Position numbers and translations under genes: made by a program. Of a stretch of 64,000 nucleotides of DNA, positions 10,251-60,193 are shown piece after piece. The stretch covers positions 288,001 through 352,000 of the forward strand of contig CBDDEL010000010.1 of NCBI GenBank assembly GCA_965226885.1, written 5' to 3'. Positions within the stretch are counted from its first letter, which is position 1; the number at the start of each line of letters is the position of its first letter. The notes beneath the pieces were generated by a model that had not been told where the DNA came from, did not search any database, and worked only from the letters and a program-made list of their open reading frames with translations. Source of the DNA: Opitutales bacterium. GTDB taxonomy: Bacteria; Verrucomicrobiota; Verrucomicrobiia; Opitutales; UBA2987.

Positions 10251-10330
10251 ACTACGCAGGGCAATTGCCAGTATGAATGAAATGAGAAGGACTACGCAGG
10301 GCAATTGCCAGTATGAATGAAATGAGAAGG
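10251..10330. repeat. Perfect tandem duplication, 40 bp x2
   Basis: ACTACGCAGGGCAATTGCCAGTATGAATGAAATGAGAAGG twice. Confidence 0.97.
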
Positions 10331-11452
10331 ACAGCGAGGGCCGTTCCGGTGAGCATGCCCTTGATGTTGCGCTCGGAAAGGTGGGCGAACATGACCGAAG
10401 GGCTGGTGGCCTCCGCCTGCATGATCTCCGGAAAATTCTCCTTTTGCCAGAGTTCGGCCCGGTCCATGAGTGCCCTCATTTTCTGGGTCGAAATATTGGC
10501 CAGGACGACGGTCAAGCGTGAGGCCGACTTGTCCACGTTTATCACGTTGTTCACATCGAGGCCGTAAGGCAGGGACATTTCGTAAAGAAGAAGGTATTGG
10601 GCGGCCAGGTTTCGTTCGTCCGGGATGCGATACCAGGAGGGGTCGTCGCCGTGCATGTTTTTATTGAGCTTTTTGAGGGTGTCCGAAAGGGTGACCACCT
10701 GCTGCACTCCGGGCTGCTCCCGATACCAATGAGTAAAGGCATCGAGGCCCTCGAGGTAAGAAGGGTTGCTGATGCCGCTGGATTCGCCGGAGGGGATCGA
10801 ATACTCGATGCTGTATATACCGGTCAGGTTATCCATGGAATAATCGGTATCCTGCCGGAAAGTGGTATCGGTGCTGAAGTATTCGACCCACTGGTCGTTG
10901 AGTTCGATGCGGGTCAGAAAAAACGCCAGCAGAGCGGTAACTGCGACCGAACCCCAAAGAAAGACCGGCCTATTCCGAATAAGGGCGTTGGCCAGGCCAT
11001 CCATCCAGACCGGCGTTTCCCTTTTGTGTTTGCCAGCCTTAACGGGTAGCAAGGACATTAATGCGGGCAGGAAAAATATGGTGAATAACCAGGCCGCCCC
11101 CACTCCCATGGCGACCACGTTGCCGAGATGGCGGAAAGGCGGCGAGTCGCTGAAATTCATGCTCAGGAAACCGATGGCGGTTGTCAGGGAGGTGAGAAAG
11201 AGCGGTTGGAAATTAGTCCTTACGCTTTCCACTATTGCATCCCTACGGGTACGCCCGCGGCCCATCTCCTTGAAAAATGTGACCAGCAGATGGATGCTGT
11301 CGGCCACCGCCAGGGTCATGATCATGGTTGGCGCGGTGGAGACTATGGGGGACAGCGGGATGCCCAGCCAACCCATCAGGCCCATGCCGGTGATGACGGA
11401 GAAGAAGATCATCATAACAGCCCCGAAGGTGCCCGCCACCGAGCGCAAGAGG

Positions 11453-11502
11453 AGGGCCATGACAGTGAAAATGCCTAAGGGCCATGACAGTGAAAATGCC
11501 TA
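11453..11502. repeat. Perfect tandem duplication, 25 bp x2
   Basis: AGGGCCATGACAGTGAAAATGCCTA twice. Confidence 0.97.
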
Positions 11503-12235
11503 GATACATGAGTGGCATGATGGAGGACATGTCTTGAATACTCGATTCGCCAAAGGCGTTGTTGAGCATGACGATACCGGTCAGTCGCACATCGAAGCCG
11601 GGATACTTTTGCTCAAATTCGGCAGCCAGTTCTCGGGAAGCAGCAGCCACCTTCATGGCTTCGGTATTCTCCTTTTCAGGTAAAGTGAGAGTGACGCTTA
11701 TGCCGGTAACCTTTTCATTTGCGCCAATTAAGCGGTTGTTTAAAAGCGGTTCGCGGTAGGCGATCACTTTGGCTTGGTCTAATTCTTGCGGGGTAACATT
11801 GGCCGGATCGGGCACCAGGTCACCGACCAGCAGATCGTCTTCTATGGCCTGGGAATGCTGAAAATTGGTGATCGAATCGACCCGGGTGGCAAAGGGGAGC
11901 TTCCAGGCTTGATCGGTCAGCCACGAAACCGCCTGGAGGTAATTTTTGGAAAAGACTAAATCTTTATCCTGTGTGAGGACGAAAATCACATTGTTGTCTT
12001 TGGTGTAGGTATTGCGGATGGCTTCGTAAGCAACCAATTGTGGGTTGTCCTTGCCAAAAAATACCCGGTAGTCGTTTTTCATTTCAATGCGGCCAAGACC
12101 AGTGCCGGCTGCGGCAACAAGGGCCAGTGTGGCTACGATAATGGGCCACCGCCAGCGCAGGACCCAGCGGCCAAATCGTTCCGGGGAGAAGGTGTTCAGG
12201 AGATTTTTTGTATTCATGTTATATTAGTGTTAGAA

Positions 12236-12251
12236 GTGAATATTTACTTAC
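12236..12251. promoter_or_regulatory. Putative TetR operator upstream of the MMPL gene
   Basis: GTGAATATTTACTTAC; 19/22 identical, with flanks, to the palindrome at 12985-13000. Confidence 0.65.
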
Positions 12252-12269
12252 ATTTTAAATTAAATTTTT

Positions 12270-12971
12270 TTACTCAATATGCTTCAGCATCCGGTTGAAG
12301 TCTCTGTCCAGCTTATCGAAGTCCAGGTATTTTTCCATGGCTTCGTCTTTCAGGCCCATGCCTCGAAGGGCGAACCAGGTGGTATCCTGAATCAAGGCTT
12401 CGGAGTTTCGCTGGTAGTTGAAGACCGGCTCGGGCGGAAGGCTGTTTAGGCGCTGTACGATAGTCATGTTGTGGGTAAACCAGAGCCGCTCCTCTTCGCT
12501 GAGGGGAGAGGCAACCATGTCGCCCGCCTCGGTTGCCGCCTGCAAGGAGGCCTTGAAGGGCTTCATTATTTTATAAAAACTGCCTTCCAGAAAAGTGCGG
12601 GCGAATTTGCCGTCTTCGGTCATGCTTTTGAACATAAGGCGCGGCAGGGCATCGGTATCCGCTGTGCCCATGGGATCCTTAATACAGCGAACCATTAAAT
12701 AGGTGAATAGAACCAGCGTTTCAGTTGAAGGCTCGAGTTTAAAAATCTGTGACATGACGCTGGCTTTGGCGGTGCACAGGCAATCTTGAATAGCCCCAAA
12801 AAGGCTTTCTTTGCCGGGAAAATGCCGGTAGAGGAGGGCTTCGGAAACCTCGGCTGCCTCGGCGATGTCTTTTGTCGTCGTGCCCACGAACCCCTTTCTG
12901 GCAAAGAGCGGGGTGGCCGCATCGATGATTGCCTGTTTTCTTTCCTCTGAACTGAGTCTGATTTCTACCAT
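12270..12971 (-). CDS. TetR/AcrR-family transcriptional regulator
   Basis: HTH GFVGTTTKDIAEAAEVSEALLYRHF. Confidence 0.93.
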   Translation of the reverse strand: MVEIRLSSEERKQAIIDAATPLFARKGFVGTTTKDIAEAAEVSEALLYRHFPGKESLFGAIQDCLCTAKASVMSQIFKLEPSTETLVLFTYLMVRCIKDPMGTADTDALPRLMFKSMTEDGKFARTFLEGSFYKIMKPFKASLQAATEAGDMVASPLSEEERLWFTHNMTIVQRLNSLPPEPVFNYQRNSEALIQDTTWFALRGMGLKDEAMEKYLDFDKLDRDFNRMLKHIE

Positions 12972-12984
12972 GATTAAACAAGAA

Positions 12985-13000
12985 GTAAGTGTTTACTTAC
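12985..13000. promoter_or_regulatory. Putative TetR auto-operator
   Basis: GTAAGT-GTTT-ACTTAC palindrome just downstream of a minus-strand TTGACA (13004-13009). Confidence 0.7.
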
Positions 13001-13063
13001 ATGTGTCAATGCTTTTTTTTATTTTTTTAATAAATTTTCATGCCTGGGTTTGCCGGAGGGGAC

Positions 13064-13092
13064 TTGACAAGCACAAGAGGGGGATTAATAAT
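13064..13092 (+). promoter_or_regulatory. Sigma70-type promoter for the nusA operon
   Basis: TTGACA-N17-AATAAT. Confidence 0.6.
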
Positions 13093-13120
13093 ATTTTTTT
13101 TCTAAAACCTCTTTTCAATT

Positions 13121-13150
13121 AAGAGTGGGTTTACGCCCGCTTTTTTTTTT
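13121..13150 (+). terminator. rimP-leader-like attenuator/intrinsic terminator upstream of nusA
   Basis: AAGAGTGGGT-TTAC-GCCCGCTTTT hairpin followed by a T10 run, between the promoter and nusA. Confidence 0.75.
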
Positions 13151-13199
13151 CTATATAAACTTTACTCAACATCTTTCTATATAAACTTTACTCAACATC
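13148..13199. repeat. Perfect tandem duplication, 26 bp x2, in the nusA 5' UTR
   Basis: TTTCTATATAAACTTTACTCAACATC twice. Confidence 0.95.
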
Positions 13200-13208
13200 G
13201 ATACAGCA

Positions 13209-14468
13209 ATGAGCAGCGAAATTCTCTCAGTTCTCGAATATATGGAGAAGGAAAAAGGCATTAGCCGTGATGACATGATCAGCGCCATCACCAATGCCAT
13301 CAAAGGGGCTGCCCAAAGGGGGGTCAACGCGGGACAGGATTTGCGGATAGAGATCGACCCGAAAACGGGCGCTCTGAATGCTTGGGCGATGCTCGATGTG
13401 GTCGATTCGATGAGCGACCCGAAAACGGAAATCCATATCGAGAAGGCGCGTCTTTTTTCTCCCGAAGCGCAAATTGGGGGGCGTATTGAGAAGGAGATCG
13501 ATCCGGCCTACCTGGGGCGCATCGCAGCTCAAACCGCGCGGCAGACCATTATGCAGCGGCTTCGCCAATTCGAAAAAGAGCGTATATACGACGATTATAA
13601 GGACATGATCGGCGATATTGTATCCGGGTTAGTGCGCCGCCGGGAGCGCGGGGACCTCATTGTGGACCTGGGCAAGGCGGAGGCGGCCCTGCCGCACCGC
13701 GAACGCGTACCGAGCGAAGATTATTCACCGGGTGAACGCATTCGCTGCCTTCTTTTGGCCATAGAGCACACCAACCGGGGACCGGAATTGATTTTAAGCC
13801 GGGCCAGTGTACGGTTTGTGCGGAGGCTTTTCGAGCTAGAGGTTACCGAAATTGCCGATGGCACGGTGATCATCGAAGCCCTTTCCAGGGAGCCTGGCTA
13901 CCGGACAAAAATTGCCGTCAACAGCAGAGACCCGCGGGTGGACCCAGTGGGCGCATGCGTGGGCGCTCGCGGCGCGCGCGTGAAGAGTATCGTGCGGGAG
14001 TTGGGGGGTGAAAAAATCGACATCATCCGCTTTTACAGCGATCCCGTCAAGATGCTGGAAGAAGCCATCAAACCGGCCGTGCCGAGAAACATCCGACTCG
14101 ATGAGGCGGGGCGGCGCATTTATTTTGAGGTTCTGGAGGAAGACCTATCCATCGCCATCGGCCGCCGTGGCCAGAACGCGCGCCTGACCAGCCGCTTGCT
14201 GGGGTGGAAGCTGGACATCTCGAAGGAGAAGAAAGTCGTGCTTGGATTCGACGCCCGGGTGGAAGCCGCCATCGCCGGCTGGCATGGAGTTCCGGGGATT
14301 TCCGACGAATCGGCCCAAAAGTTAGTCAGTCTTGGCATCGTCAATCCAGAAGCTTTTGTCGGGGTAGAGGCCGATGACCTGGTGGGAGCGGGATTTACCC
14401 CGGAGGAAACAGCCGATGTCATCACTAATGTAGAAAAATTCCGAAACCGGGATAAAATTGACGTTTGA
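13209..14468 (+). CDS. nusA: Transcription termination/antitermination factor NusA
   Basis: [40 protein letters not shown]. Confidence 0.98.
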
Positions 14469-14540
14469 GAATTTTTGCAAGAGACCGCAGGCGGTGGTTG
14501 CCGCCATTTATCCAGTCATCCTTTTTGATTTAAACACAGC

Positions 14541-16946
14541 ATGAGCGTCAGAGTATACGATCTTTCCAAGAAAACCGGGATGACTAACGTTGAACTCGTT
14601 AAGTTACTCCGGGAGCGTGGTTTTATTGTCAAAAGCGCCTCCAGCACGGTCGATAATATATCTGCGGAAAGCCTGGTCGAGGAATTTGGGCAGAAAACGG
14701 AAGCTCCCCAGGTGGAGAAAGCCGTTGCGCCCCCGGTCCTGGCTCCTGCCATTCCGGTAGTTCCCAAACCAGCTTTACCTCCGGGGATTTTCGTAAAATC
14801 GAGGGCCGATGTGGAAAAGGAGCGGAAGGAAAAACTGGAAGCCGAGGGTCGTTTGCGGAAACCAATCAAGCCCATCAAGCCGAAGGTGATGCCCCCTGTG
14901 CAGACCGTGAAGTCGCCACCCCGGCCACGGCATGTGGCCATATCTACATTCAGGAAGCAACCGATCGAACCGATGGTTACCACTCCGCCGAGCAGAGAGG
15001 AATCTGCCAAGCTGCCGGAATCGCCCGCCTCTCCCGTAAATGTGGTCCCCTCCATGGCCACCAGCCCCCAGCAGCCAGCCATTCCGCCTAAACCGCCTTC
15101 GCTTTCTGCGAAAGCGCCTTCAGCCGAGGCCGAGGCCGGAAAAGAGGAAGCGGAGCCCGTCGAATTGAAGATGCTTCAGGTGAAACCGCCCATCGTAGTG
15201 CGCGATTTTGCCGAAATCATAGGGTTAAAGCCCTTTCGCCTCATTTCGGAGTTAATGGAAAAGGGTATATTTGCCTCCATGAACCAGGTCATTGAGGAAG
15301 ACATAGCCCAGTTAATTGCCCAGAAGCATGGGTATAAACTCGATATCCGGCACCGGGGCGAAGGCCAGCCGGAAGCCCAGAAAGTGAAAAAAGCCGAACC
15401 GGTTATCGATGAGAGCAAGCTGCTTGAGCCGCGACCGGCGGTGGTCTGCATTTTGGGGCATGTGGATCATGGCAAGACGACTTTGCTGGATACCATACGC
15501 AACGCCAATGTAGTGGCTGGCGAGGCGGGGGGAATTACCCAGCATATCGGGGCTTACCAGATAGAGCACAAAGATCAGAAAATCACTTTTATCGATACTC
15601 CCGGCCATGCCGCCTTTTCCCAAATGCGCGCGCGGGGGGCGGGCATCACTGATATCGCCATTTTGGTGGTGGCGGCTGACGATGGATTTATGCCGCAAAC
15701 GGATGAAGCACTTGGGCATGCGCAGGCGGCCAATGTCCCATTGATTGTGGCCATAAACAAGATCGACACCAAGGGGGCTGATATCGATCGCGTCAAAACT
15801 CAGATGCAGGATCGCAATATCGCCGCTGAAGACTGGGGCGGGGAAATTCTCACCGTTTCCATTTCGGCCCTCAAAGGGGAGGGGATTGATGCCCTGCTCG
15901 ACAGCATCAATTTACAGACGGAAATTATGGAAACCTTGAAGGCCAACCCCAAGTGTCCGGCCGAGGGTGTGATTTTGGAGACGCAAAAGGAGATGGGCAG
16001 GGGGGCCACCGCGTCCGTAATCATCCAAAAGGGAACTCTAAAGCAGGGTGATGCGCTTTTATCTGGCCCCTGCTACTGCAAAGTGCGGGCCATGATGGAT
16101 GACACGGGAAAACCGTTAAAAAAAGCTGGGCCGTCCACTCCGGTAAAAGTAATAGGCTGGTCCGGGCCTCCGAATTCCGGGAACCTCTTTACAACGGTCA
16201 AGAATGAAAGGCAGGCTAAAAACCTGGCTGAAGAAAATGCCCACCAGCTCAAATTGGATGGGCAAGCAGCGCCAGTTGAGGATCAGCCGGTTTCCCTGGA
16301 GCATCTTTTTGCGGCCATAGCGGAAACGAAGAAGAAGATTTTCCGGGTGGTGGTAAAGGCGGATGTATTTGGCACGGCGGAAGCATTGGCGGGCAGCCTT
16401 CTGGATATTAAAAGCGACAAGGTCGATCTGGAAATCGTGCAGACTGCGGTTGGCCCCATCAGTAAGAATGACGTGCTTATGGCGAGCGCCTCGGAGGCGT
16501 CGATAATAGGATTCAATGTCAACCTGGAAGCGGGAGTTGCGGGGGATGCCAAGCACCGGGGGATCACCATCCACCTGCACAACGTAATTTACGAACTCGT
16601 TGATCTGGTGAAGGAAGCCATGGTCCTCACCCTTGATGTGGAGCTTCATGAGAACAAAATCGGGGCGGCCCAGGTGCGGCAGGTCTTTCCCGTTGCCAAA
16701 GGCGGACAAGTGGCTGGCTGCCTGGTCACAGAAGGTCGTCTGGTGAGGGATGGCAATGCCCGCTTATTCCGCGATGGCGAGGTTTTGCACGAGAATAAAA
16801 TATCCACCCTGAAGCGATTCAAGGACGATGCTACGGAAGTGCGCGCTGGTTATGAATGCGGCTCCAGGCTGGGCGATTTTGACGATTACAAGGAAGGGGA
16901 TTTGATTGAATGTTACGAAATCCTGAAAGTCCGGCCCACCCTGTAA
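14541..16946 (+). CDS. infB: Translation initiation factor IF-2
   Basis: [34 protein letters not shown]. Confidence 0.98.
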
Positions 16947-17068
16947 TCTCACTGGTCAAACTGTGCCTCTGTAAGACATAAATTGGGTAGTAGAAAGAAT
17001 TTCCGGGTTGCGTTCGGGCTGGAAAAAGAATTTTTACATCGGCATTAAAATTTCAACCAGACAGAAAT

Positions 17069-17419
17069 ATGGTCAAACGAATGGTCCGAGTAAATGAGCT
17101 GGTGCGGCGTGAAATCAGTGAAATTTTGCATACCCGGTTTCGGAGTGAATGTGTCGCCATTACTATTACAGAGGTGAAGGTGGCCAGCGATCTGCGCAAC
17201 GCGAGGGTTTTTTATGCCGTGTTGGGCGACAATGAGAATACGCAATCGGCGCAGCTTTTTTTGAAAAAACAGGGGAGGGAAATACGTCATCTATTGGGTC
17301 GGCGAGTGGTCCTTAAATACACACCTTTTCTCACCTTCGAACACGATGAGTCCATTGCCAGGGGATTTCACTTAAACAGCCTTATAGACGAACTCGATCT
17401 GGAAGAAGAACCTATTTAG
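17069..17419 (+). CDS. rbfA: Ribosome-binding factor A
   Basis: RMVRVNELVRREIS, DLRNARVF, KYTPFLTF; operon position. Confidence 0.95.
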   Translation: MVKRMVRVNELVRREISEILHTRFRSECVAITITEVKVASDLRNARVFYAVLGDNENTQSAQLFLKKQGREIRHLLGRRVVLKYTPFLTFEHDESIARGFHLNSLIDELDLEEEPI

Positions 17420-17426
17420 CTCAAGT

Positions 17427-18416
17427 ATGTATTACCCTCAATTCAAATCATCCTTTCTCGAAATGCTGGAAGCCCTGAGGGGCCAAAAAGTGGTAGTCTT
17501 GGGGCACCTTCGGCCGGATGGCGACTGTGTTGGGTCGCAGGTCGCTTTCTGCCGGTGCCTGCTGTCCCGGGGGATCGAAGCTGTTTGTCTCAATGCGCAT
17601 CCGGTTCCGCGTGTTTTGCGATCCTTTGTGGGGGACACCCCTTATTATTTGCCTGAAAAATTTAATCATGAAGGGTTCCTGGCGGCCAATATGGATTGCG
17701 CCGATGAAGTCCGCATCGGCCGGGAGCTGCAAGCGCGGTATCCGGAAATTCTGGTCAATATCGACCATCACATATCCAACCCGGCCTACGGCCGATTCAA
17801 CTTTATCGACTCCACTTCATGTGCTACAGCGGAAATCCTGGCAGGGCTTTTTTTTGACTGCGGTATTTCCATCGACCCCATAACCGCTCAGGCCCTTTAT
17901 GCCGGCATCGTTACTGACACAGGGCAATTCCGATTTCCTTCGACCACCCGCCAGGTTTTCGAAATCTGCCGTTTATTGATGGAAAACGGGGCCGACCCGG
18001 CGGCCGCGGCGATGGAGCTTTATGAAATGGAAAGTCTCTCCAAGCTGCAACTGCTGGAGCGCTTTCTGGCCTCACTGCAATTGGAGTGCGATGGCCGGGC
18101 TTGCATCGGGGTGTTAAAAAACGGGGTTTATGAAGAGACCGGTTCGGACAGCGAAGACTCCGAGGGATTGGTCGATTACGCGCGATCGATCGAGGGGGTG
18201 GAGGTGGCCGTATTGCTGGAAGAGCGCAGCGGCGCGATTAAAGGCAGTTTTCGGGCAAAAGACCCTGTGCACCGGGTGGACCGGCTGGCCGCAAAATTCA
18301 ATGGGGGAGGCCATGCCTGCGCCGCCGGCTTTAATTGCAGCGGAATACTGGCAGATTTTTACCCAAACCTGGTGGCAGTATTGCAGGAACATTTTCAAAG
18401 TCCCGGAATTTCATAG
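17427..18416 (+). CDS. nrnA: DHH/DHHA1 bifunctional oligoribonuclease/pAp phosphatase
   Basis: [26 protein letters not shown]. Confidence 0.88.
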
Positions 18417-18435
18417 ATTTAAAAATCAAGATAAT

Positions 18436-19161
18436 ATGAACCCTAATCCACACCCATTTGAAGGTCTCCTCTTAGTTGACAAGCCCCGCGGACCGTCCTC
18501 CCATGATATAGTGGACCGGGTGCGCCGTAAATTGGGCATGAGGCGGATCGGCCATGCCGGCACTCTTGATCCTAACGCGACTGGTTTGCTCATCATTCTG
18601 GTGGGCAAAGCGACCAAAGTGTCCCAGTATTTAATCAATCTGGACAAGTTTTACGAGGGAGTCATAAAATTGGGGGAGAAAACCGATTCGCATGATTCGG
18701 AGGGAAAAATAGTGGCGGAGATTCCCGTTCCCGCCCTCAGCGAGGAGCAAATTATGGAATTCATGAACGGGTTTGTGGGCGACCAGTATCAGACCCCGCC
18801 TATGTTTTCGGCCAAAAAAATCAAGGGAGTTCCTCTCTACAAGCTGGCCCGGAAAGGAAAAGTTGTGGAAAGAGAGCCGCGTTTTATCCGTGTTTCGGCA
18901 ATGAATTTGCTGAAAATCGAGCTGCCTTTTATATCCTTTTCCATACATTGCAGCAAGGGCACCTATGTTCGCACTATCGCCCATGATCTGGGCCATAAAA
19001 TTGGCTGCGGCGCCCACCTGTCGGAATTGCGGCGCACAGGCATCGACAAGTTTCTCCTGGCCGATGCCGTTTCCCTGGAGAAGTTCGAGGATTTTTCAGT
19101 GAGGGAAATCCAGAGGAGCCTGCTGCCGGTTTATCAGGCCATTCCTAGCAATGTCTTGTAA
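18436..19161 (+). CDS. truB: tRNA pseudouridine(55) synthase
   Basis: [27 protein letters not shown]. Confidence 0.96.
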
Positions 19162-20146: not shown

Positions 20147-20217
20147 ATATTCAATTTTCAGAAATCCCCGCTTTTTTTATAAAACCGGCCTGAATCTCTT
20201 CGTTTTCAATTAATTCG

Positions 20218-20991: not shown

Positions 20992-21078
20992 AGTGTTGAT
21001 CGAGTTGAAAACCGCATAAACGATGCCGATCAAGTTCTTGGGTGTCACCGGTTCAACACCCACTTTGGCATTATTCTA

Positions 21079-22919
21079 GAGGCTGTCCCAAAAGGGTGAT
21101 TTTTGCGAGGGCTTTTGATAGGCGCTCATTTTAGAGGTATTTGCATTTGGGAGAGTATCAACTTTGCTCTCCTATGACGTTAGGATACTGGTTTTGGGGT
21201 CCGGTTGCCTGGTTTTCTTTGTATGAGCCGACAGTACGGCTGTGAAAAAGTATTGTCCTTGCTTTTCCGCTCTCTAGGCCGCCGCTTTGGTTTTTAGTTC
21301 GTCTTGCTGGGCCAGCATCTTGGCTACTTTCCATAGGTTGTGCGAGAGTACCGACCAGGCGTTGTGCGAGAGTACCGACCAGGCTACGCTGATCGAGCGG
21401 TTGGCAAAGCCTTTGCTGCGCAACCGCCCAGCCTGCCAGCGATTCTTCAATACCCCGATCCGCCCTTCGGTGCTGGCCCGGCGCTTTTGCAATTGTCTGA
21501 ACAGTGGTTCCTCCATCCGTTTTTTCAACTGCTTCGGATCGCGTGGACAGAGCGCGTCGTAGATTCCCTCCTGGGCTAACTGCCGGCGGGCCCGCTGGGA
21601 GGCAAATCCCCGGTCCGCGCACATGGCCGCTATGGGTTCTTCCAGGTTGAAGCGGTTCTGTCTTTGCAAACTCTCTTGCATTTGTTCATTTTCGCTTGGA
21701 GTTCGGCTGCCGTAGAGTTTCCAGTCCAGCAGGTACCCTTCAACGCTTTCTCCCAAAAACAGGGTGTTGCCGAACTCGACCTCTTGGCCCGCTTTACCTC
21801 GCACAATCACCTGCCCATCGAGTTCGTAAACACTCAAGACTTTCTCTGCGTTTTTCACCTGGCGGCCGCCAATGATCCGCTCGTGCGCCTGTTTGATGAC
21901 CACCGGGATTTGCTCGCTCATGCGCTCCATCCGGGCGAGGATCTGTTGGACCTGTTTTTCGCTGTAATCGCTTTGCTCCCAGCAGGCTTGCAATAATTCC
22001 CGGTGACTGCGGGCATGCTCCCCGATCCGTTTGAGCAGCTTTTTCATCTGCCTCAAGATACCCTTGCGCTGCCGCGCGCTGTCCTTTCGCCGCCGGCTGT
22101 GGGTCATCTGTATGCACAGCCGATTCATCTGCCGAGCCAAGGGCTCCGGTTCGATCGGCATGCGATGGCGCAAACCGGCCTTCTCGCGGATCAGCCGGAT
22201 CGCTTTGAGCAACGTGCCGGCTACATCCTTGAGTAATACCCAGTCCGTCGGCCAATGAATGTTAGCCTCCAAACAGGTGCCGTCGATCAGGCAAATGGTG
22301 GTGTCAATCGGCTTGTCCAATCCCACCTGCCGGGCCAGAAGGGCATCGCCCACCACCTCAGTCAAGGTCCGGTGCAAGGCCCTCAACTGCTCTTCGCTGA
22401 AAAACTTCGAGGCCCGCTCCAGGGTGCTTTTGGAGATGCCCCTGATGCCATCGATCTGCCGGACACGGCAAAAGTCGGCCAACAGATCGCTGCTGCCCAG
22501 AGCCCTCGACAAATGCCGAAACGAAATCCCTCCGAGCAGACGGCCCAGCGTATCCATGCGCAGTGCCTTGATGGCAAAACTGGCCCGCTGCCGCCGGGCC
22601 TTTAGACCCATTGGCGGCCACCCCTCCAAGGCCAGCTCAATGGCCTGCGATTCCACCTCCGAGTCGATCAGCAGCCGATCGATTCGATCAATGGTGGCGC
22701 GGAAGTTATCGTAATCGAGGCACCGGTCGACCACAGTTAAAGCTGGACGCAGGAGGCATTGGATGGCTATATTTTTCATAGAAAGGGCTATATTGATTTT
22801 CGCTAACTCAATTATAGAACCCTTTTTTGGCCGGATCGAGCAAAAACTTGCTCTTTCCGGCTCTTTTTATCAACGTCATCCAGTTGACTATAAAATCTTT
22901 ATATTTTTGGGACAGCCTC
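21079..22919 (-). mobile_element. IS5-like element copy 2 (transposase 21274-22779, 501 aa)
   Basis: TIR GAGGCTGTCCCAAAA, TA flanks, DDE motifs IDGT, ADRGF and TEGRIG. 1817 bp plus a 24-bp in-frame duplication. Confidence 0.93.
21337..21384. repeat. Perfect tandem duplication, 24 bp x2, private to this IS copy
   Basis: GTTGTGCGAGAGTACCGACCAGGC twice (AWSVLSHN x2); single in copies 3 and 4. Confidence 0.97.
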
Positions 22920-26674: not shown

Positions 26675-26706
26675 CGACTGTCAGGCTTTCCGACTGTCAG
26701 GCTTTC
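26675..26706. repeat. Perfect tandem duplication, 16 bp x2
   Basis: CGACTGTCAGGCTTTC twice, upstream of the CN-hydrolase genes. Confidence 0.9.
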
Positions 26707-26719
26707 CAATTGATAATTA

Positions 26720-31261: not shown

Positions 31262-32314
31262 TTATTCTTTAATTAAAATGGAATCCGTTATTTGCAAATC
31301 CTGGGCCAGAGGCCGTAACGGTTCCAATTTCCGAAGGTTTAATTCGTTGTGGTATGCTTTCACCGCTTCTTTGGGAGCTATATCGGCGTCTGCAATTTTT
31401 TTGAGAAATTCGATAAAGGTGAGGGGTTCTTCGGAAAGATTGATTTTTCGCCCGAAAAGCGCCGCCCGAGCGCCGTGTTTGCGCGCATTATGAATAAGTT
31501 GAAAAGCATCCATGGTGGTTCCCGAGCTTCCACCCAGAATGCCGACGATTAAGCCGGGGTCGTAAGCCACAAGCTCTTCCAATGACTTTGCGCCGTTGTA
31601 GGGAATTTTCAAAAAGAGGGGGCGGCCAACATCCGTTACCCCGGCCAGGCAACGAACGATGTGGTCATTAAGGAAAGAGCCAATTTCTTGCGAACGGAAG
31701 CCCAGATCGATGTTTGGGTTAAACACTTCCAAAAAGTAGCGAAAATGCTTTTTCTCCGCTTCCAATCGAAAAGCATGAAATTCTTCCAGCGATCGATGAT
31801 CGTGGGCAATGTCGTTATTGAATGTTATTGAATACAGGCCGAGATCCGCTCCCGTTGCCGGTTTTGAATGATCTTTTTCCAACCGCCCGTATTTGATGTG
31901 ATCAATCGTGGCAGTACGAAAGGGGCGGGATGGGTGTTCAATGTAATTTCCGCCGCGCATTATCCAAATGTCGGTGGTGTCGTTGGCCCTCGCGGCTGGA
32001 GTGATGAGCGAATTTTCGAAAAGAGATTCCTTGATGGCGAGCTGCTCCAAACTGGAAGCTGAAAGAAGCACTATATCGACGATATCCTGTCTGATTATGG
32101 CCCTGATTTGATTCCGGATATCTTGCAGCGATTTCCAGGAACTCTCCGCACTTTCTATACCGTTGCGAGGTTTATGAGATGCCGGTCCCGGCGCCGCTAT
32201 TCCGAAGGCCATGTCGGCGTCCTTAGCGTCGGCAATTATAAAATCCTTGGAACCCGAAGGATCGTTTCGAATTCGCTCGATTTTAAGGTCTAATCTATTC
32301 TTTCCACTTTTCAT
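31262..32314 (-). CDS. Uncharacterised class I aldolase-like TIM-barrel protein
   Basis: Start MKSGKNRL; FLEVFNP, PLFLKIPY, GILGG, ALFGRKI; clustered with the isomerase and kinase. Confidence 0.65.
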   Translation of the reverse strand: MKSGKNRLDLKIERIRNDPSGSKDFIIADAKDADMAFGIAAPGPASHKPRNGIESAESSWKSLQDIRNQIRAIIRQDIVDIVLLSASSLEQLAIKESLFENSLITPAARANDTTDIWIMRGGNYIEHPSRPFRTATIDHIKYGRLEKDHSKPATGADLGLYSITFNNDIAHDHRSLEEFHAFRLEAEKKHFRYFLEVFNPNIDLGFRSQEIGSFLNDHIVRCLAGVTDVGRPLFLKIPYNGAKSLEELVAYDPGLIVGILGGSSGTTMDAFQLIHNARKHGARAALFGRKINLSEEPLTFIEFLKKIADADIAPKEAVKAYHNELNLRKLEPLRPLAQDLQITDSILIKE

Positions 32315-32538
32315 TTTACGGTTATACGAGAAAAAATTTGATCGGGGAATAAAAAAATAGTTGAGGCCGGTGTGCACATGGGGGCCGTCAAGCTTGAAAA
32401 CCTCGGGGCAAAGGTGTTGTTCTGGAAAAGAATCTGGACTAATGTAGCTGTCAAAGCTTAAAAGTGATGTGCACTGGAAAAAGTGGACACGAGATTCTCC
32501 TAAATGGAGAATCGAAGCATGGGAAGAAGACGCTTTAG

Positions 32539-34137
32539 CCCGGATATTTCGTAAAAAAAGTATCGTTGATATGCTTAACTGCTGATATACAGCAGCGTTG
32601 ATATGCTTAACTGCTGATATACAGCAGGATAGATCAATAATTAAAGCAATATCAGCGATGACAAAAGGTAAACAATTAAAGCTACAGTTGACAAGGGTAA
32701 AAGGCCGCCGTGTGCGGGTTGATTTCAAGGGCGGAGAGGTTACTTCGGATGCCGGACTGCTTTTGATCCGGGAAGTGGATCGGCAGTTGGGCTTGACCGA
32801 ACGAGCGGCCCGACAGTTAGTGGACAAACGGCAGAAGGGCAAAGTACGCCATGAGGTATTGGGGATGCTGCGGCAGCGCGTTTACGGGCTGGTGGCGGGC
32901 CATGAGGATTTGAACGACTTTGACACCCTGCGCCGCGATCCTTTGTTGCAAACGGTAACGGGGCGCACTGAAGCGTTGGCCAGCGCGCTGACTTTGTGTC
33001 GTTTTGAAAACGGGCAGGATCGGCGGGCAGCCTTTGCCCTGAACGAGTTGCTGGTCGAACAGTTCATCGGATCCTTTGCCGAGGAACCCGAAGAGATCAT
33101 CCTGGACTTTGACGCCACCGACAATCCGGTGCACGGGCTCCAGGAGGGACGTTTTTTCCACGGTTATTATGATCATTACTGTTTTCTGCCGCTATATGTT
33201 TTTTGCGGTGATCAGCTGCTGGTGGCCTACCTGCGGCCGAGCAAGATCGATGCCAGCAAGCATGCCGGGGCCATCCTCAAATTGCTGGTTAAACGGATTC
33301 GCCAAAGCTGGCCCCGTACGCGGATTATTTGGCGCGCCGACAGTGGATTTTGTCGAGACCGGATACTCTCTTGGTGCGACCGCAACGAAGTTAGTTACAT
33401 CGTGGGGATGGCTCGCAATGCACGCTTGCAGCAAGACGCCCAGCAGTTGCAAAAGCAGGCCAAAGAATGGTTCGAACTAAGGGGTAAAAAACAACGGTTA
33501 TTCCAGGACTTCGTCTATGCTGCCGATTCGTGGCGCTGGCTGCGGTTGGTCATCCATAAAGCCGAACACACCGCACAGGGGTCCAACCCGCGCTTCGTGG
33601 TGACGAACCTGCCGGGCGATCCCCAGGAGCTTTACGACAAGGTATACTGTGGCCGCGGTGAAATGGAGAACCGAATCAAGGAACAGATGCAATTGTTCAG
33701 CGAGCGCACCAGCGCCCATCAATGGTGGGCCAATCAGTGGCGATTGCTCTTGTCGGCGCTGGCCTACACCTTGATGGAAGCCATGCGCCGGTTAGCCTTA
33801 AAAGGGACGAAGTGGGCGCGGGCCCAATGCCACACCCTGCGGCTCAAATTAATCAAGATCGGAGCGGTCATCGTGCGCAACACCCGAACGATTCACTTTC
33901 ACCTAAGTGAGAGTTATCCTTGGGCCAGTCTTTTCAACCATGCGGCCCGCCGATTGGTGCCAACCTAAAGGGTGCATTGGTGCTGCCCCCGGCACTACCG
34001 AACCAATGGGGGAAAGGGGGCAGTGTCTCTACACCCTGAAAAACACCTAAAAATCAAGACGATCTGCTCAAAATACAAAGAAATCCATCTCCAATAGCAA
34101 TAACGAGCCAAACTTTACCCTTCATGAAATATCCGGG
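32539..34137 (+). mobile_element. IS1380-family element (transposase to 33968)
   Basis: TIR CCCGGATATTTC, TSD TTAG; LDFDATD, RADSGF, RGEMENRIKE. Confidence 0.95.
32564..32627. repeat. Perfect tandem duplication, 32 bp x2, private to this IS1380 copy
   Basis: CGTTGATATGCTTAACTGCTGATATACAGCAG twice; single in the four other copies. Confidence 0.97.
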
Positions 34138-35488: not shown

Positions 35489-37312
35489 GAGGCTGTCCCA
35501 AAAGGGTGATTTTTGCGAGGGCTTTTGATAGGCACTCATTTTAGAGGTATTTGCATTTGGGAGAGTATCAACTTTGCTCTCCTATGACGTTAGGATACTG
35601 GTTTTGGGGTCCGGTTGCCTGGTTTTCTTTGTATGAGCCGACAGTACGGCTGTGAAAAAGTATTGTCCTTGCTTTTCCGCTCTCTAGGCCGCCGCTTTGG
35701 TTTTTAGTTCGTCTTGCTGGGCCAGCATCTTGGCTACTTTCCATAGGTTGTGCGAGAGTACCGACCAGGCTACGCTGATCGAGCGGTTGGCAAAGCCTTT
35801 GCTGCGCAACCGCCCGGCCTGCCAGCGATTCTTCAATACCCCGATCCGCCCTTCGGTGCTGGCCCGGCGCTTTTGCAATTGTCTGAACAGTGGTTCCTCC
35901 CTCCGTTTTTTCAACTGCTTCGGATCGCGTGGACAGAGCGCGTCGTAGATTCCCTCCTGGGCTAACTGCCGGCGGGCCCGCTGGGAGGCAAATCCCCGGT
36001 CCGCGCACATGGCCGCTATGGGTTCTTCCAGGTTGAAGCGGTTCTGTCTTTGCAAACTCTCTTGCATTTGTTCATTTTCGCTTGGAGTTCGGCTGCCGTA
36101 GAGTTTCCAGTCCAGCAGGTACCCTTCAACGCTTTCTCCCAAAAACAGGGTGTTGCCGAACTCGACCTCTTGGCCCGCTTTACCTCGCACAATCACCTGC
36201 CCATCGAGTTCGTAAACACTCAAGACTTTCTCTGCGTTTTTCACCTGGCGGCAGCCAATGATCCGCTCGTGCGCCTGTTTGATGACCACCGGGATTTGCT
36301 CGCTCATGCGCTCCATCCGGGCGAGGATCTGTTGGACCTGTTTTTCGCTGTAATCGCTTTGCTCCCAGCAGGCTTGCAATAATTCCCGGTGACTGCGGGC
36401 ATGCTCCCCGATCCGTTTGAGCAGCTTTTTCATCTGCCTCAAGATACCCTTGCGCTGCCGCGCGCTGTCCTTTCGCCGCCGGCTGTGGGTCATCTGTATG
36501 CACAGCCGATTCATCTGCCGAGCCAAGGGCTCCGGTTCGATCGGCATGCGATGGCGCACACCGGCCTTCTCGCGGATCAGCCGGATCGCTTTGAGCAACG
36601 TGCCGGCTACATCCTTGAGTAATACCCAGTCCGTCGGCCAATGAATGTTAGCCTCCAAACAGGTGCCGTCGATCAGGCAAATGGTGGTGTCAATCGGCTT
36701 GTCCAATCCCACCTGCCGGGCCAGAAGGGCATCGCCCACCACCTCAGTCAAGGTCCGGTGCAAGGCCCTCAACTGCTCTTCGCTGAAAAACTTCGAGGCC
36801 CGCTCCAGGGTGCTTTTGGAGATGCCCCTGATGCCATCGATCTGCCGGACACGGCAAAAGTCGGCCAACAGATCGCTGCTGCCCAGAGCCCGCGACAAAT
36901 GCCGAAACGAAATCCCTCCGAGCAGACGGCCCAGCGTATCCATGCGCAGTGCCTTGATGGCAAAACTGGCCCGCTGCCGCCGGGCCTTTAGACCCATTGG
37001 CGGCCACCCCTCCAAGGCCAGCTCAATGGCCTGCGATTCCACCTCCGAGTCGATCAGCAGCCGATCGATTCGATCAATGGTGGCGCGGAAGTTATCGTAA
37101 TCGAGGCACCGGTCGACCACAGTTAAAGCTGGACGCAGGAGGCATTGGATGGCTATATTTTTCATAGAACATAGAAAGGGCTATATTGATTTTCGCTAAC
37201 TCAATTATAGAACCCTTTTTTGGCCGGATCGAGCAAAAACTTGCTCTTTCCGGCTCTTTTTATCAACGTCATCCAGTTGACTATAAAATCTTTATATTTT
37301 TGGGACAGCCTC
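35489..37312 (-). mobile_element. IS5-like element copy 4 (transposase 35684-37165)
   Basis: 1817 bp plus a 7-bp duplication CATAGAA at 37163-37176. Confidence 0.94.
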
Positions 37313-53649: not shown

Positions 53650-55250
53650 CTACCTCCGAACCACCATTGCCCTGTCCAAAAAAGCTTTCGCCTGGGTTCG
53701 GACCCTGGCAATCGAATCCACTCCCGTGACGATTATTTCGAGAGAACGCCGCCCCTTTATTTTTTCTCCCGCAAATGCCGCCCGCAAACGATCCTGGGCC
53801 GTTCGTGCCATGGGTATGACCGCCTCATTCTGATTGTCGTTCCAAACCGCAAAAAGTACGTGCACCTTTTGGCCCCTCGCGCTGAAAGTATAAGATTTCA
53901 GGTTTAGTTGGAGGCCGTCTTTTTCCCACAATAGCGGTTTGTCCGTGGCCGATAGCTGAAAACCGGCTGCCGGCAGACAGACCTCCGGCTTGTGGACATC
54001 GGCAAAGGAGGAAATTTTTCCCTCCTCCCAGACGAAAAAATAGGCGTTCCATTTTTCACTTTTGCGAGGACGCCAACTGGCCTGCGTCCCTTCAGAATAT
54101 CGCAGAATGGAGCGTATCTGAGATGGTATTTTTTCAAACTCCACTGTGGAGCCGACCTGCGACCATTCGATCGATGCAATCAATGGATCGGCTGTTTCCT
54201 GGGAATCTCCCCGCTGGAACCACCAGGCGGATACGGGGTAACTGAGCAGGCAGATAATGACCAATATTACCGCTTCCCTCCGGCCCAGCCAGTTGAGGGG
54301 GGATTCGCCCATGGGGCGGCTTTGCGGCCCTTCCGCCGCACCCTTTCGGCGCAAATTATTAATGACCAGGGTCAGGCCCAGGATGATGAGAAAGGCGCCG
54401 AAAGAGACCAGGTAGCCCACCGGATCGTGCCAGTTTTGCATAACATCTCCGCCATCTTTATAAGTGATATAAGTTAGCAAAAACGTCCTCCCCAATAAGT
54501 TAGCAAAACCGTCCTCCCCACATTGAGGATGACGGAGACTATCGAACCGAATACAATCAAAACGAGGCGCAGCCACAACCGGTAGCGAAATAATTCGCCC
54601 AGAAAATAGGCTGCCATAATGGTGGACTGAAAAGACCTCACTCCGCTACAGGCTTCCTCCACCCCGACCCACCCATTGGCTAGTTGGATCAAATTACCTT
54701 CCCGCACCGCGTAAAATCCCAGCAAATTCATGAAATCAACCGTTATGGCGGCCACCATGCGCATGAGTCCCTGAGTCAGGTTTTGCTCGAATTGCATGGG
54801 CCAGGGAACCGCGAAAAGGAATATGGCCAGCGCCGGAGCGAACCATCTGCCCCACGATTTGCCACCCAAAATTACCAGGAAAGCCCATGACACCGCATAA
54901 ATCAGAAGAGCCTGAGCCCAGTAAACCATGCGCCAGTCGGGATTGGATTCCCAGATGATTTTCAGGGGAAAAAGGAGGAGGGCGGCAGCCCAGAGCAATC
55001 CCTTAACGGGAAATTTCGAAGCATTGCCGCTTTCAATTCGAGGCCTGTTCAACCACCTCAGGTAAAGAAGATACAGGGTGATAAATGGAACCAGATAACC
55101 GAAACGGTACTGCTCGTTGATCGACCATTCAAGGCTCAAAACCCGTATCAGGTCGCCCCAGAAAATAGCCAGCAGGAGAAGATTTACGGCTGCCAGCCCC
55201 GACCAGTTCAACTTCGTCCTGATCCTAGTCCTCCTCTTTCGCTTTTTCAT
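53650..55250 (-). pseudogene. Exosortase with an EpsI-like C-terminal domain, frameshifted by a 26-bp duplication
   Basis: EEACSGVRS (Cys), NVGR (Arg), WHD (His), HKPEVCLPAAG. Confidence 0.88.
54469..54520. repeat. Tandem duplication, 26 bp x2, one mismatch
   Basis: ATAAGTTAGCAAAA[A/C]CGTCCTCCCCA twice. Confidence 0.95.
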
Positions 55251-57377: not shown

Positions 57378-57713
57378 TTAAATGTTATTTCTATTATAAA
57401 TTTGGTATTTCAGGCCTTGGTCAATCGCAGCCGTCGGGAGATTCTCGATCTTGACGTGACCGCCAAAAACACAACCATTTCCAGTGAGAGCCTTTCCGCA
57501 GAAATTACCGGAAAAATATTTGAAGCAAAAATGATTCACCCCAGAACAGATCATAACGATACTGCGCAAAGTAGACTCAGGCCAAGGCATTAATGTTGCT
57601 CGCTCACCCAATACATTTGCCAGACTCTGGCCAACTTGCAACAAAGCAGCTACGGGCTGTACTGCTCCCTTTTCTGCGGCCTTAAATATACCGGAATTAA
57701 TCCGATTGTTCAA
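57378..57713 (-). pseudogene. Possible decayed ankyrin-like gene remnant
   Basis: IFKAAEKGAVQPVAALLQVG resembles one ankyrin repeat; the rest is unrecognisable. Confidence 0.25.
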
Positions 57714-57745
57714 GATTGAAAGGTTTCCCGATTGAAAGGTTTCCC
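57714..57745. repeat. Perfect tandem duplication, 16 bp x2
   Basis: GATTGAAAGGTTTCCC twice. Confidence 0.92.
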
Positions 57746-57807
57746 AATAGAAATGTTGCTGGGAAAACTTGCCAGATTGACAGGCATCCCTACTATAGTT
57801 AGCCGTT

Positions 57808-58218
57808 ATGAGTCATGAAGAACTGGAGGAAGGATCGAATCTGCAACTCGATTTTACGAAATTGGCCAAGGCCACGGCCTGCGGGGAAGACCTCGTGCCC
57901 GCCGTGGCTCAGGATGCCGATACAGGGGAAGTGCTTATTGTTGGTTACGCCAACCGTCTGGCCCTGGAAACGTCTTTAAAAGAGGGTAAGGCCACCTTTT
58001 GGAGCACTTCGCGCAATGAGCTATGGATCAAAGGCGCCACCAGCGGCGATTATCTGGAAATCGAGCAAGTGCTGGTCAACTGCGAGCAAAACGCGATTCT
58101 CTACCGCGTGCGCCCGGCCGGAGAAGGCGCCTGCCACACCAAAGGACCCGATGGGCGAGCCCGCAAGAGCTGCTATTATCGCAAAATCCAGCCCGATGGG
58201 AAGCTGGAGCATCTTTGA
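57808..58218 (+). CDS. hisI: Phosphoribosyl-AMP cyclohydrolase
   Basis: FWSTSRNELWIKGATSG, NCEQNAIL, GACHT, SCYYR. Confidence 0.93.
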   Translation: MSHEELEEGSNLQLDFTKLAKATACGEDLVPAVAQDADTGEVLIVGYANRLALETSLKEGKATFWSTSRNELWIKGATSGDYLEIEQVLVNCEQNAILYRVRPAGEGACHTKGPDGRARKSCYYRKIQPDGKLEHL

Positions 58219-58297
58219 TAGGGAGCTATTGGTGCGGAAAAAAGTATTTATCCAACTTTCCCTGATTGCGAAGACGCACAATAGCTTGCTAGCTAAA

Positions 58298-60193
58298 TCA
58301 TTCCATCACTTTCACTAAGTGTTTCTCAATTTTGGCGTAAAGTTCATCGCTTTGGAAAGGTTTGGCCAGATGGTCCGTGCAGCCGGCGGCAATCTGCTCA
58401 GCTACCGCATCTTTGCCGGTTGCGGCTGTCAGTGCTATTATGGGTGTGTTGGCGAATTCAGGGAAGCTCCGCAATTTTTTAGTTAATTCCAATCCTCCCA
58501 TCAAGGGCATTCGCATATCCACAAGTATAATCTCTGGCTGATGATTTGGGGCAATTTTGAGAGCTTCTTGTCCGTTAAGGGCTACAGCCACTTTGTGATT
58601 GTAGGCTTCAAGCATCTGGCTTCAAGCATCTCCAGGATCATGGTTATCAATTCTTTATTATCTTCAACCACGAGTATTCGCCTGCCGGTTAGAAATGCTT
58701 CAATTGTTTCAACTTCCAACGTCGTCACCTGTTCGGTACTCGAATCCGCTGACTTTACAAGAGGCAAAGGGCAAAGTAAACCAGAATTTACTGCCCTGAC
58801 CTGGTGTGCTTTCCACTCCTATCTTTCCGGCGTGCAACTCCACCAACCGCCGGGTTAGAGCCAGCCCAATGCCGGCTCCTCCCATTCCCTCGTCTCGCAC
58901 CCTGTCCACTTGGTAAAACTCGGAAAAAATGTCCTCGATCTGATCGGCCGGAATACCAACACCGCTATCCTGAACTGAAATCCTGATTGCTGAATCACCC
59001 ACCAACTCTGTGCGTATTACAATGAGGCCATTTTCCGGAGTATATTTGATCGCGTTGGAAAGCAGGTTGAGCAGGATTTGCTTGCATTTGCGAAGATCGC
59101 ACCAAATTTCGCTTATCGCTGGATCGATCGAAGATTCCACATTTATTCTTTTCTTATCAAACTGCGTTTTCAATAGAGATAACATAGCATCAATAAGGTC
59201 CTCGGCCGAAAATACCTCCATCTCGATTTCAGTCTGTCCGGAATCGATTTTAGTGAGATCCAAAATATCATTAATTAAGTTCAAAAGATATTTACTACTT
59301 TCCTCGATCATCTCCATTGAAGCTGTCTGCTTTTTATTCAAGGTACCGAAAAAATTCCTTAACATCATGTCGGAATATCCAATTACAGCACTGAGAGGGG
59401 TTCGTAACTCATGACTCATGTGAGACAAAAATCTACCTTTTGCCTGGTTGGCTAAGGCTGCTCGTTTGGTCGAAATTTCGGCCTCATTGATAGCTCTCTT
59501 CAACTTTTCCTGGGCTTCCTTGTAATCAGTAATGTTCTGATCGAATCCGATGGCCCCAACATGACGGCCTTCTTTGTCCAAGCCACCCGACCGGCCTGCA
59601 CAATGGATGTGACGGACAGAACCATCCTTTAAAATTATCCGGAACTCTATATGTCGTAATTCTCCTTGGGGCAAAGTAACCCAGTTGATTTTATTCAACA
59701 TCTCTCGATCATCTGGATGGACCTGTGCCATAACAGATGCTTCTATTGGTGTTACCTCACCAGGTTCAAACCCGTGAATTCTATAATATTCCTCCGACCA
59801 ATAGCCCTCTCCGGTGACATTATCATATTCCCATTGGCCGATATTTGCAATACGCTGTACCTCAGAAAATCGTTCATCTCTTTTCCTGAGAGCTTCTTCC
59901 GCCATTTTTCGATAAGTAATATCGACGTTTGATACTATTACCCTGGACCAGGTATCCTCGTAACCGGAAACGATAGTTATAACAGCTAAAGTGTGATTGA
60001 TCCCACCCTCATTATCGTAGGCGGTAAATTCCGATTCGAAGCTGTTCATCCCATCAATAAAAGAAAGCAGTTCCTCGCCAAAAGACTCAAGGGAATCGCG
60101 GGTTAATACTTTATCTAAGGGGATAAAAAGATCTGCTTTTTTACTGGCTTTTCGAAGCACAACCGTAGCTTGGTTCGCATCGACAAGTGGTAG
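58298..60193 (-). pseudogene. PAS-HisKA-HATPase-REC hybrid sensor kinase; 5' end cut by the IS nest, with 7-bp and 14-bp duplications
   Basis: MSHELRTPL, NLLSNAIKYT, GAGIGLAL, ILVVEDN, DMRMP. GGCAAAG x2 (58763-58776) and GGCTTCAAGCATCT x2 (58604-58631). Confidence 0.92.

Follow-up and report, generated by a model that had tools for sequence, protein, structure and literature searches.

Blunt tandem duplications with a C(-5) boundary mark in an insertion-sequence-laden Opitutales-like bacterium, and a Topo III-type topoisomerase as their possible agent

We analyzed a 64,000-nucleotide stretch of DNA from an Opitutales bacterium, referred to here as the window (C10:288001-352000 of G000, a metagenome-type assembly of 5.48 Mb in 17 contigs that is 96.3% complete), in which an earlier note had listed 11 head-to-tail two-copy duplications of short segments. 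The duplications are real, recent mutations in one strain cluster of an Opitutales-like Verrucomicrobiota bacterium laden with insertion sequences (IS), and the blunt ones carry a new boundary mark, a cytosine five bases outside the duplicated unit, denoted as C(-5), which obeys a same-strand rule. The feature is a natural counterpart of a known kind of laboratory mutator, with a testable enzymatic mechanism. The chances that the duplications are made by the sole type IA topoisomerase of G000, an enzyme of the Topo III type, through escape, extension and resealing of a cleaved strand, appear to us to be about even.

Using Tandem Repeats Finder together with an exact two-copy scan, we recovered all 11 duplications (Table 1), nine of which lacked microhomology at the junction and two of which showed 1-2 nt, in agreement with the earlier description. 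The window held nine exact repeats with a period of at least 10 bp, whereas 100 dinucleotide-preserving shuffles averaged 0.1 and never exceeded 2. In the case of the shortest repeats, E. coli K-12 has 104 exact 6-7-mers per 200 kb, and therefore the 7-mers are indistinguishable from chance. The same applies to the 2-5 bp duplications at 47734, 51517 and 43622.

Across G000, exact two-copy repeats with a period of at least 10 bp numbered 608, with 381 in unique DNA and 227 in repeats, and their density was about 110 per Mb in both compartments alike (111 per Mb overall). Repeats of at least 200 bp make up 36.7% of this genome, and several IS families reach ~100-300 copies. To describe the junctions we used the extension, that is, the number of nucleotides by which identity runs past the two exact copies (junction microhomology). 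Extensions of 0, 1, 2, 3 and at least 4 nt were found in 333, 146, 69, 23 and 37 of the 608 repeats, respectively, and the proportions calculated for a blunt duplication in random flanks are 56, 28, 10.5, 3.5 and 1.6%. Considering that the counts match the calculation, the duplications are blunt, with microhomology at chance apart from a minor excess of ~4-5% (extensions of at least 4 nt in 6.1% versus the calculated 1.6%), which may be slippage. The view that the duplications are blunt and unrelated to pre-existing repeats thus holds genome-wide. The copies abut exactly, without remnants of element ends between them, and the length distribution was smooth, with 153, 125, 70, 62 and 51 events at periods 8 to 12; the repeats with a period of at least 10 bp had a median of 16 bp and a 90th percentile of 28 bp, and some exceeded 50 bp.

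We counted the same class of repeat (exact, two-copy, period of at least 10 bp) in related genomes, among which G001, G002 and G004 belong to the genus of G000, and G005, G007 and G008 to a sister genus of the same family. E. coli K-12, as an outgroup, had 0 in 200 kb, G001 had 1 in 120 kb, and G005 and G008 had 2 and 3 in 200 kb, respectively. G039, from the same order, gave 9 rows in 400 kb, of which ~3 were genuine two-copy duplications on reading and the rest were microsatellite arrays. The closest relative, G004 (~85% DNA identity), had 46 in 984 kb (C27 and C28; 46.7 per Mb).

To compare the window between samples, we used the stretch 9500-19499, which is present in six public runs of three studies, and aligned contigs of four of these runs to 4500-21050. 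The comparison was made on assembled contigs rather than on raw reads and covered three duplications; X1 is possibly the source sample and X3 is a run of another study. The 26-bp repeat at 13148 was spanned gap-free by the contigs of X1 and X3. At 11453, the second 25-bp copy was present in X1 and X5 and missing in X3 and X6. At 10251, one 40-bp copy was skipped in the X6 contig, and the contigs of X1 and X3 stopped inside the repeat. Two of the three duplications were therefore present in contigs from runs of other studies, and two of the three had one copy missing in some contigs, while the long contig pieces of the other runs differed from the window by ~0-2 positions per kb (~99.8% identity). 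Same-genus relatives were single-copy at all three sites tested, where their spans were 40, 25 and 21 bp shorter; the span of G004 was 40 bp shorter at the 10251 site, and relatives were 25 bp shorter at 11453. The duplications are thus derived. Among unique-DNA repeats with periods of 18-60 bp, 176 were perfect and 12 had one mismatch, whereas we infer that steady accumulation would give about equal numbers; the events are therefore recent or short-lived. In the same comparison, the X3 and X5 contigs, from runs of two other studies, carried 27 extra bases between two 12-nt direct repeats in infB (window 15122-15140). We rejected this insertion as a duplication of the present kind, and it is an in-frame, repeat-mediated indel in initiation factor 2 that is polymorphic in the population.

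The duplications are unevenly placed with respect to genes. After removal of one copy, 48% of the 381 sites in unique DNA lay in an open frame of at least 600 nt, compared with 81% of 3000 random unique positions. Of the 119 duplications in long frames whose length is not a multiple of three, 80 break a frame that reopens on collapse to one copy, so the proposal that the duplications are a real source of gene inactivation is borne out genome-wide. We also considered an enrichment of multiples of three in coding DNA as a sign of selection and rejected it, since 65 of 184 lengths were divisible by three, which is no excess. Within the window, the broken genes are an MMPL/RND transporter gene (by two duplications), an exosortase/EpsI-like gene and a hybrid histidine kinase/receiver gene. 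The sites there fall in transporter, exosortase, kinase and IS copies or in upstream and intergenic positions, so the absence from housekeeping open reading frames holds within the window.

The IS copies served as a further record of mutation. Of the duplications in repeats, 142 were private to one copy and 85 were common to 2-6 copies; the 21337 site is single-copy in 142 other copies of IS family A (IS A), and the 32564 site is single-copy in 272 other copies of its element. For a mutation spectrum, we aligned four repeat units over 641 of their 642 full-length copies (858.6 kb), leaving out a divergent one, and counted variants found in at most three copies. The spectrum comprised 442 substitutions (302 transitions), 111 insertions and 44 deletions. 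Pure tandem duplications accounted for 98 of the 111 insertions, and several of the other 13, notably those in a hot spot of IS A, were nested duplications when read from their sequences. Among indels of at least 4 bp, there were 76 insertions versus 20 deletions, and 14 of these 20 deletions had microhomology of at least 3 nt. The IS-derived events span 1-60 bp, and about one pure tandem duplication of at least 4 bp was found per seven substitutions. The hot spot is a single 50-bp bin at the transposase start of the 1821-bp IS A (IS A positions 1650-1699; window 28368-28418 and 37140-37190), which holds 13 of the 37 insertions of at least 4 bp in this element. The bin contains the cleavage-site-like sequence TTTTTCATAG, and several of its insertions are nested, around TTTTTCATAGAAAGGGCTA.

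Given these results, an assembly or polishing artefact is scarcely credible as an explanation, even though the assembly is of the metagenome type in 17 contigs and only three duplications were compared with other runs. The 26-bp and 25-bp repeats are also found in contigs from other studies and further contigs miss one copy, the sites avoid long open frames relative to random positions, most of the duplications in IS copies are private and the rest are common to a few copies, and the boundaries carry a specific sequence motif.

To define this motif, we used 299 blunt events with a period of at least 10 bp, after removing copies shared between repeats. At the base five positions outside the unit, C was present on the left in 46% and the mirror-image G on the right in 47%; the share at offsets 2-4 and 6-9 was 12-26%. 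In 235 of the 299 events, one or both flanks had an outward C(-5), versus 45.5% expected (p = 2e-31). The left and right outward C(-5) were mutually exclusive (odds ratio 0.31), and an outward C(-5) was accompanied by a same-strand C(-5) at the 3' end of the unit itself, with odds ratios of 2.62 (p = 8e-5) and 1.66 (p = 0.04) in the two orientations. At the new joint, a 3' end of the form ...C-N4 is therefore linked to a 5' end that is naturally preceded by ...C-N4 as well, with both sites on the same strand. When we oriented the 154 of 234 events (period of at least 12 bp) that had exactly one outward C, the flank consensus was TTnC[A/T]A[T/A]n, ending directly at the boundary, where C(-5) is 100% by construction of the set. 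T was present at -2 in 49%, A was favoured at -4 and -3 and T at -8 and -7, and the 3' end of the unit had C(-5) in 51% of these events. Blunt IS-derived events of at least 4 bp, a set that partly overlaps the genome-wide one at periods of at least 10 bp, also had the mark at offset 5 in 33 of 68, compared with 7-21 of 68 at other offsets.

A joint with C-N4 on the same strand for either end is at odds with a pair of nicks placed on opposite strands. The earlier note had favoured such staggered nicks with fill-in and end joining, or abortive transposition or excision of an element with variable target-site duplications (TSD), and both would fit the bluntness of the duplications and the high activity of the IS elements. 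A paired-nick route likewise duplicates the stretch between two nicks bluntly, but its nicks lie on opposite strands, whereas the motif here lies on one strand per event and its outward occurrences on the left and right are mutually exclusive. Furthermore, Ku (PF02735), ATP-dependent ligase (PF01068) and Cas1 were not found in the 96.3% complete G000. The TSD version fits no better: the lengths are smooth, without a spike at the sizes of resident target duplications, and the duplications arise privately inside IS copies. In the window, both copies of IS B have fixed 8-bp TSDs and, by eye, none of the three IS A copies has a long TSD; a C1-type IS elsewhere in G000 has a 4-bp TSD. We therefore consider this explanation, largely refuted by the strand rule, to be highly improbable.

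Faulty processing of Okazaki fragments or flaps, as in rad27/FEN1-like defects, was considered as well, because the genus has only a 5' nuclease that stands alone, and the polymerase (Klenow) domain of Pol I was not detected in G000, G001, G002 or G004. In G000, the TIGR00593 match is confined to positions 2-285 in a frame of 317 aa (C8:34005-34850), as is the case in the three relatives, and the sister genus g2 (G005, G007 and G008) has full-length PolA. In its available part, a recent preprint (bioRxiv 10.64898/2026.02.28.708716) claims the rad27/FEN1-linked route termed MTD as the dominant route of tandem duplication across life. Like the duplications of G000, those of MTD are described there as short and two-copy, able to seed tandem repeats and depleted from coding DNA. 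However, the flap-type duplications in that text are bounded by short repeats and need flanking microhomology, whereas the extension in G000 is at chance level, with the small excess at 4 nt and above noted earlier. G001, with the same PolA state, had a single duplication in 120 kb, and a flap defect predicts neither the C(-5) motif nor the strand rule, nor was a bias toward the skew strand seen. As such, this explanation is disfavoured and appears to be very unlikely. Loss of mutS, mutL, recJ or the 5' nuclease, which had been suggested, did not hold up, since all four are intact, as is the RecQ-like gene, and we rejected these repair genes as a cause.

We then considered enzymes that cut and reseal one strand. 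G000 has one PF01131 match, an intact 830-aa protein (C16:753075-755564) that scores 1072.3 bits against the NCBIfam Topo III equivalog NF006032 (cut-off 1058). Among solved structures it is closest to E. coli Topo III (293 bits, versus 124 bits for Topo I), the columns aligned to E9, D111, E115, Y319 and R321 of E. coli TopA are conserved, and its motifs are AEKPS, CDAGREGE and ITYPRTDS. Judged by these profile and motif matches, the only type IA topoisomerase of G000 is of the Topo III class. No match to topA_bact over its cut-off was found in 21 genomes of the order, G000 included (10 of 14 control genomes pass), and 150 of 151 genomes of the order encode a Topo III-type protein of ~830-860 aa, no other type IA enzyme having been found. 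The names given to its closest homologues put the G000 enzyme in Verrucomicrobiota (Opitutales or Puniceicoccales).

The known cleavage preferences of type IA enzymes bear on the motif. In the accessible text of PMC9363430 and PMC11999072, human TOP3B favours C-5, T-2, T+2 and T+3, and replacement of C-5 suppresses cleavage. Bacterial Topo I favours C-4 and has the ruler residues R169, R173 and Y177, at which Topo III differs (PMC3467081 and PMC7587558, in their accessible text). C-5 and T-2 are also present in the flank consensus of the duplications, and the distance differs from the C-4 of Topo I. The flanks here show the additional preferences for A and T given above, the TOP3B preference was measured in vitro with the human enzyme, and the accessible part of PMC9363430 describes no link to duplications. 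The duplication boundaries thus suggest that the Topo III-type enzyme of G000 may cleave single-stranded DNA with C at -5.

Based on these observations, we infer the Topo III-type enzyme as the agent, the order escape, extension and resealing, and the involvement of a polymerase. In this mechanism, the enzyme would cut one strand after a ...C-N4 site of the above consensus and stay linked to the 5' end. The free 3' end would then escape, and a polymerase would add the next 2-60 nt to it while displacing the strand to which the enzyme is bound. The enzyme would recapture the lengthened 3' end, preferably when C is again five bases from its tip, and reseal it, and the looped-out copy so left would become a blunt tandem duplication at the next replication. 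Such a cycle would account for the bluntness of the joints and the same-strand rule, for the weaker sequence context of the second site, and for both the hot spots and the surplus of insertions over deletions. As such, the part of the earlier proposal that invoked a nicking activity stands, in that a nicking enzyme is the likely agent, while staggered nicks on opposite strands with fill-in or end joining do not.

No polymerase would be needed to explain why the two ends of a joint carry C(-5) on the same strand if two Topo III complexes at same-strand C(-5) sites on sister duplexes swapped partners, producing a duplication and a matching deletion. This exchange predicts equal numbers of blunt deletions, but in the IS copies, where selection should be weak, insertions of at least 4 bp outnumbered deletions by 76 to 20 and most of these deletions had the microhomology described above, so we regard it as quite unlikely. 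We judged it unlikely, too, that the likeness to TOP3B is coincidental and that another single-strand nickase staying bound to one end cuts and rejoins the DNA, such as an HUH or relaxase-type enzyme or a nicking activity of an abundant IS family. The large repeat content with its high-copy IS families and the short, degenerate motif would suit such an enzyme, as would the state of G004, which has nearly the same Topo III, far fewer signature events and no C(-5) signal. However, the IS transposases of the window are of the DDE or rve types, in which transposon ends are joined to a target with a constant stagger. The duplication lengths do not peak at 4 or 8 bp, the sizes of the resident target duplications, and no type IB topoisomerase was found in G000, in a search that did not extend to HUH enzymes.

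Several points weigh against the assignment to the Topo III-type enzyme or against the rule on which it is built, and the G004 comparison just given is one of them. The enzyme is linked to the events by sequence evidence, and the C-5 preference is that of human TOP3B in vitro, while the accessible text of the papers says of bacterial Topo III only that the C-4 rule is absent. T+2 and T+3, preferred by TOP3B, were not seen in the 154 oriented events. An outward C(-5) was lacking in 64 of the 299 blunt events, the same-strand association is weak in the orientation with p = 0.04, and the odds ratios at other offsets were noisy (0.15-2.4, none significant). No strand bias was seen, with 22 of 49 events on the G-rich strand by GC skew and 30 of 62 on the sense strand, in a genome that is rearranged and has a weak GC skew. 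The enzyme class alone is not sufficient, given its near-universal presence in the order and the lack of an excess in six other sampled relatives. In particular, the enzyme of G004 is of the same type and 92% identical to that of G000, and yet among 23 blunt duplications of G004, C(-5) was found in 14 of 46 flanks (p = 0.28) and on either side in 11 of 23, which is no signal. The small number of duplications compared between runs, noted above, belongs here as well.

The G004 flanks also led us to reject the C(-5) motif as a trait of the whole lineage. The duplication load of G004 is intermediate, with more long microhomology (9 of 46 with at least 4 nt) and no C(-5) mark, and therefore a second, different background process seems to act in the genus.

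To see what sets G000 apart, we compared its Topo III-type enzyme with homologues. A14T (motif AEKPSV-T) is one of two departures of the enzyme from the at least 90% consensus of 117 homologues; the second, L517, is common to the three closest homologues, and A14T is not. T is present at position 14 in 4 of 120 homologues, and G039, which carries it, has ~3 genuine duplications in 400 kb, so A14T alone was rejected as the cause. In addition, xseA, which encodes the large subunit of exonuclease VII (ExoVII), is a pseudogene in G000 (C11:253518-256458, locus L114). Its reading frame is interrupted after ~codon 118 by a C1-type IS (92% identical to the C1-type copy of the window) that has a CTAG target duplication, and again near codon 270 by a 1-bp deletion. 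The gene is intact in all five relatives checked, and among the matches listed no other xseA match has an internal stop (128 of 151 genomes of the order have an xseA match). Three reduced genomes without xseA showed no excess: G011 had 0 blunt two-copy events in 400 kb, G015 had 6 rows in 200 kb, all with 2-13 nt of extension, and G026 had 2 rows in 200 kb. In the accessible text of Huang et al. (PMC7929499), ExoVII removes 5'-tyrosyl adducts and degrades single strands, and its loss did not worsen the toxicity of trapped type IA topoisomerase. Based on these three genomes and this report, loss of xseA alone was rejected as the cause. A14T and a dead xseA occur together only in G000 among the genomes looked at. 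It is tempting, though doubtful, to read G000 as a natural cleave-extend-reseal mutator in which Topo III was unleashed by A14T together with the loss of ExoVII. On this two-hit reading, A14T would act from beside the catalytic Glu-Lys of the TOPRIM motif, and ExoVII, where functional, would digest the 3' end that has escaped or the enzyme-linked strand that has been displaced.

The nearest known system is the topA R168C mutator of E. coli, which, in the accessible text of Bachar et al. (Nucleic Acids Res 2020, PMC6954433), produces repeat-independent head-to-tail duplications of 2-19 bp with hot spots, by a mechanism of de novo tandem repeat formation that the authors call unknown. The two are alike in that the duplications are repeat-independent, as shown here by the extension counts, that a type IA topoisomerase is implicated, that insertions are raised and tandem, and that hot spots occur, as in the IS A bin. 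They differ in that R168C is a laboratory mutation of Topo I, whereas G000 represents a natural population and an enzyme of the Topo III type, in which the arginine equivalent to R168 is kept and which belongs to an order where topA_bact exceeded its cut-off in none of the 21 genomes. The lengths here reach further, with 10% of the set with periods of at least 10 bp measuring at least 28 bp and IS-derived events extending to 60 bp. Furthermore, that text reports no cleavage-site motif at the hot spots, in contrast with the same-strand C(-5) mark of G000. In the full-text literature, with subscription-only articles outside the scope, we found no paper linking Topo III to bacterial tandem duplications or describing such a natural spectrum.

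The individual duplications of the window are collected in Table 1. The 2.9-kb element C, in which the 32564 duplication lies, was rejected as a single repeat family (window 32466-35394, 40724-43623 and 60195-63562), and it is a nested, composite element. A 1571-bp IS with a DDE_Tnp_1_4 transposase (~221 full copies) is located inside the left end of an IS with an rve integrase (~125 copies). As a nested pair, the two have spread further, and the third window copy of the pair (60195-63562) is rearranged with inverted pieces.

Table 1. Tandem duplications of the window, with junction extension, genomic context and C(-5) marks
Position	Strand	Duplication	Context	C(-5)
10251..10332	+	40 bp x2, exact, tandem; 2-nt extension	Frameshifts MMPL/RND transporter gene; Pfam matches in flanking frames	C at -5 in left flank
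11453..11502		25 bp x2, exact, blunt; extension 0	MMPL/RND transporter gene also broken at 10251; polymorphic between samples	No outward C(-5)
13148..13199		26 bp x2, exact, blunt; extension 0	10 bp upstream of nusA start	No outward C(-5)
21337..21384	+	24 bp x2, exact, blunt; extension 0	Private to one IS family A copy	C at -5 in left flank and at unit end, both + strand
26675..26707	-	16 bp x2; 1-nt extension	Intergenic, between CN-hydrolase gene and IS; 10 bp from IS A end	Outward C(-5) on - strand
31814..31833		10 bp x2, exact	Absent from the earlier list	
32564..32627	-	32 bp x2, exact, blunt; extension 0	Private to one copy of 2.9-kb IS element C	Same-strand C(-5) pair, - strand
37163..37176		7 bp x2; extension 0	Within IS family A insertion hot spot, transposase start	
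54469..54520		26 bp x2, one mismatch between copies (96% match)	Overlap of exosortase (EpsH) and DUF3485 frames; exosortase/EpsI-like junction	
57714..57757	-	16 bp x2, exact, extension 0, plus partial diverged third copy (2.8 copies, 89%)	Upstream of hisI	Same-strand C(-5) pair, - strand
58604..58631	-	14 bp x2, exact, blunt; extension 0	Truncates receiver domain of hybrid sensor kinase	Outward C(-5) on - strand
58763..58776	+	7 bp x2; extension 0	Near 3' end of histidine-kinase frame (hybrid histidine kinase/receiver gene); too short to exclude chance	Same-strand C(-5) pair, + strand

The usual indel bias of bacteria is toward deletions, and the excess of insertions in this genome is opposite to it. 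The de novo origin of tandem repeats is an open question, and here a natural population is dominated by repeat-independent duplications. The boundary motif points to a candidate enzyme and supplies rules for both the cleavage site (C at -5) and the strand, and thereby turns the origin of these duplications into a directly testable question; it also suggests that the cleavage preferences of topoisomerases are readable from genome sequence. If the reading of G000 as a natural cleave-extend-reseal mutator is true, it would reveal a general way in which an enzyme creates tandem repeats out of unique sequence. Such mutators may speed the formation of pseudogenes in degenerating, IS-rich genomes.

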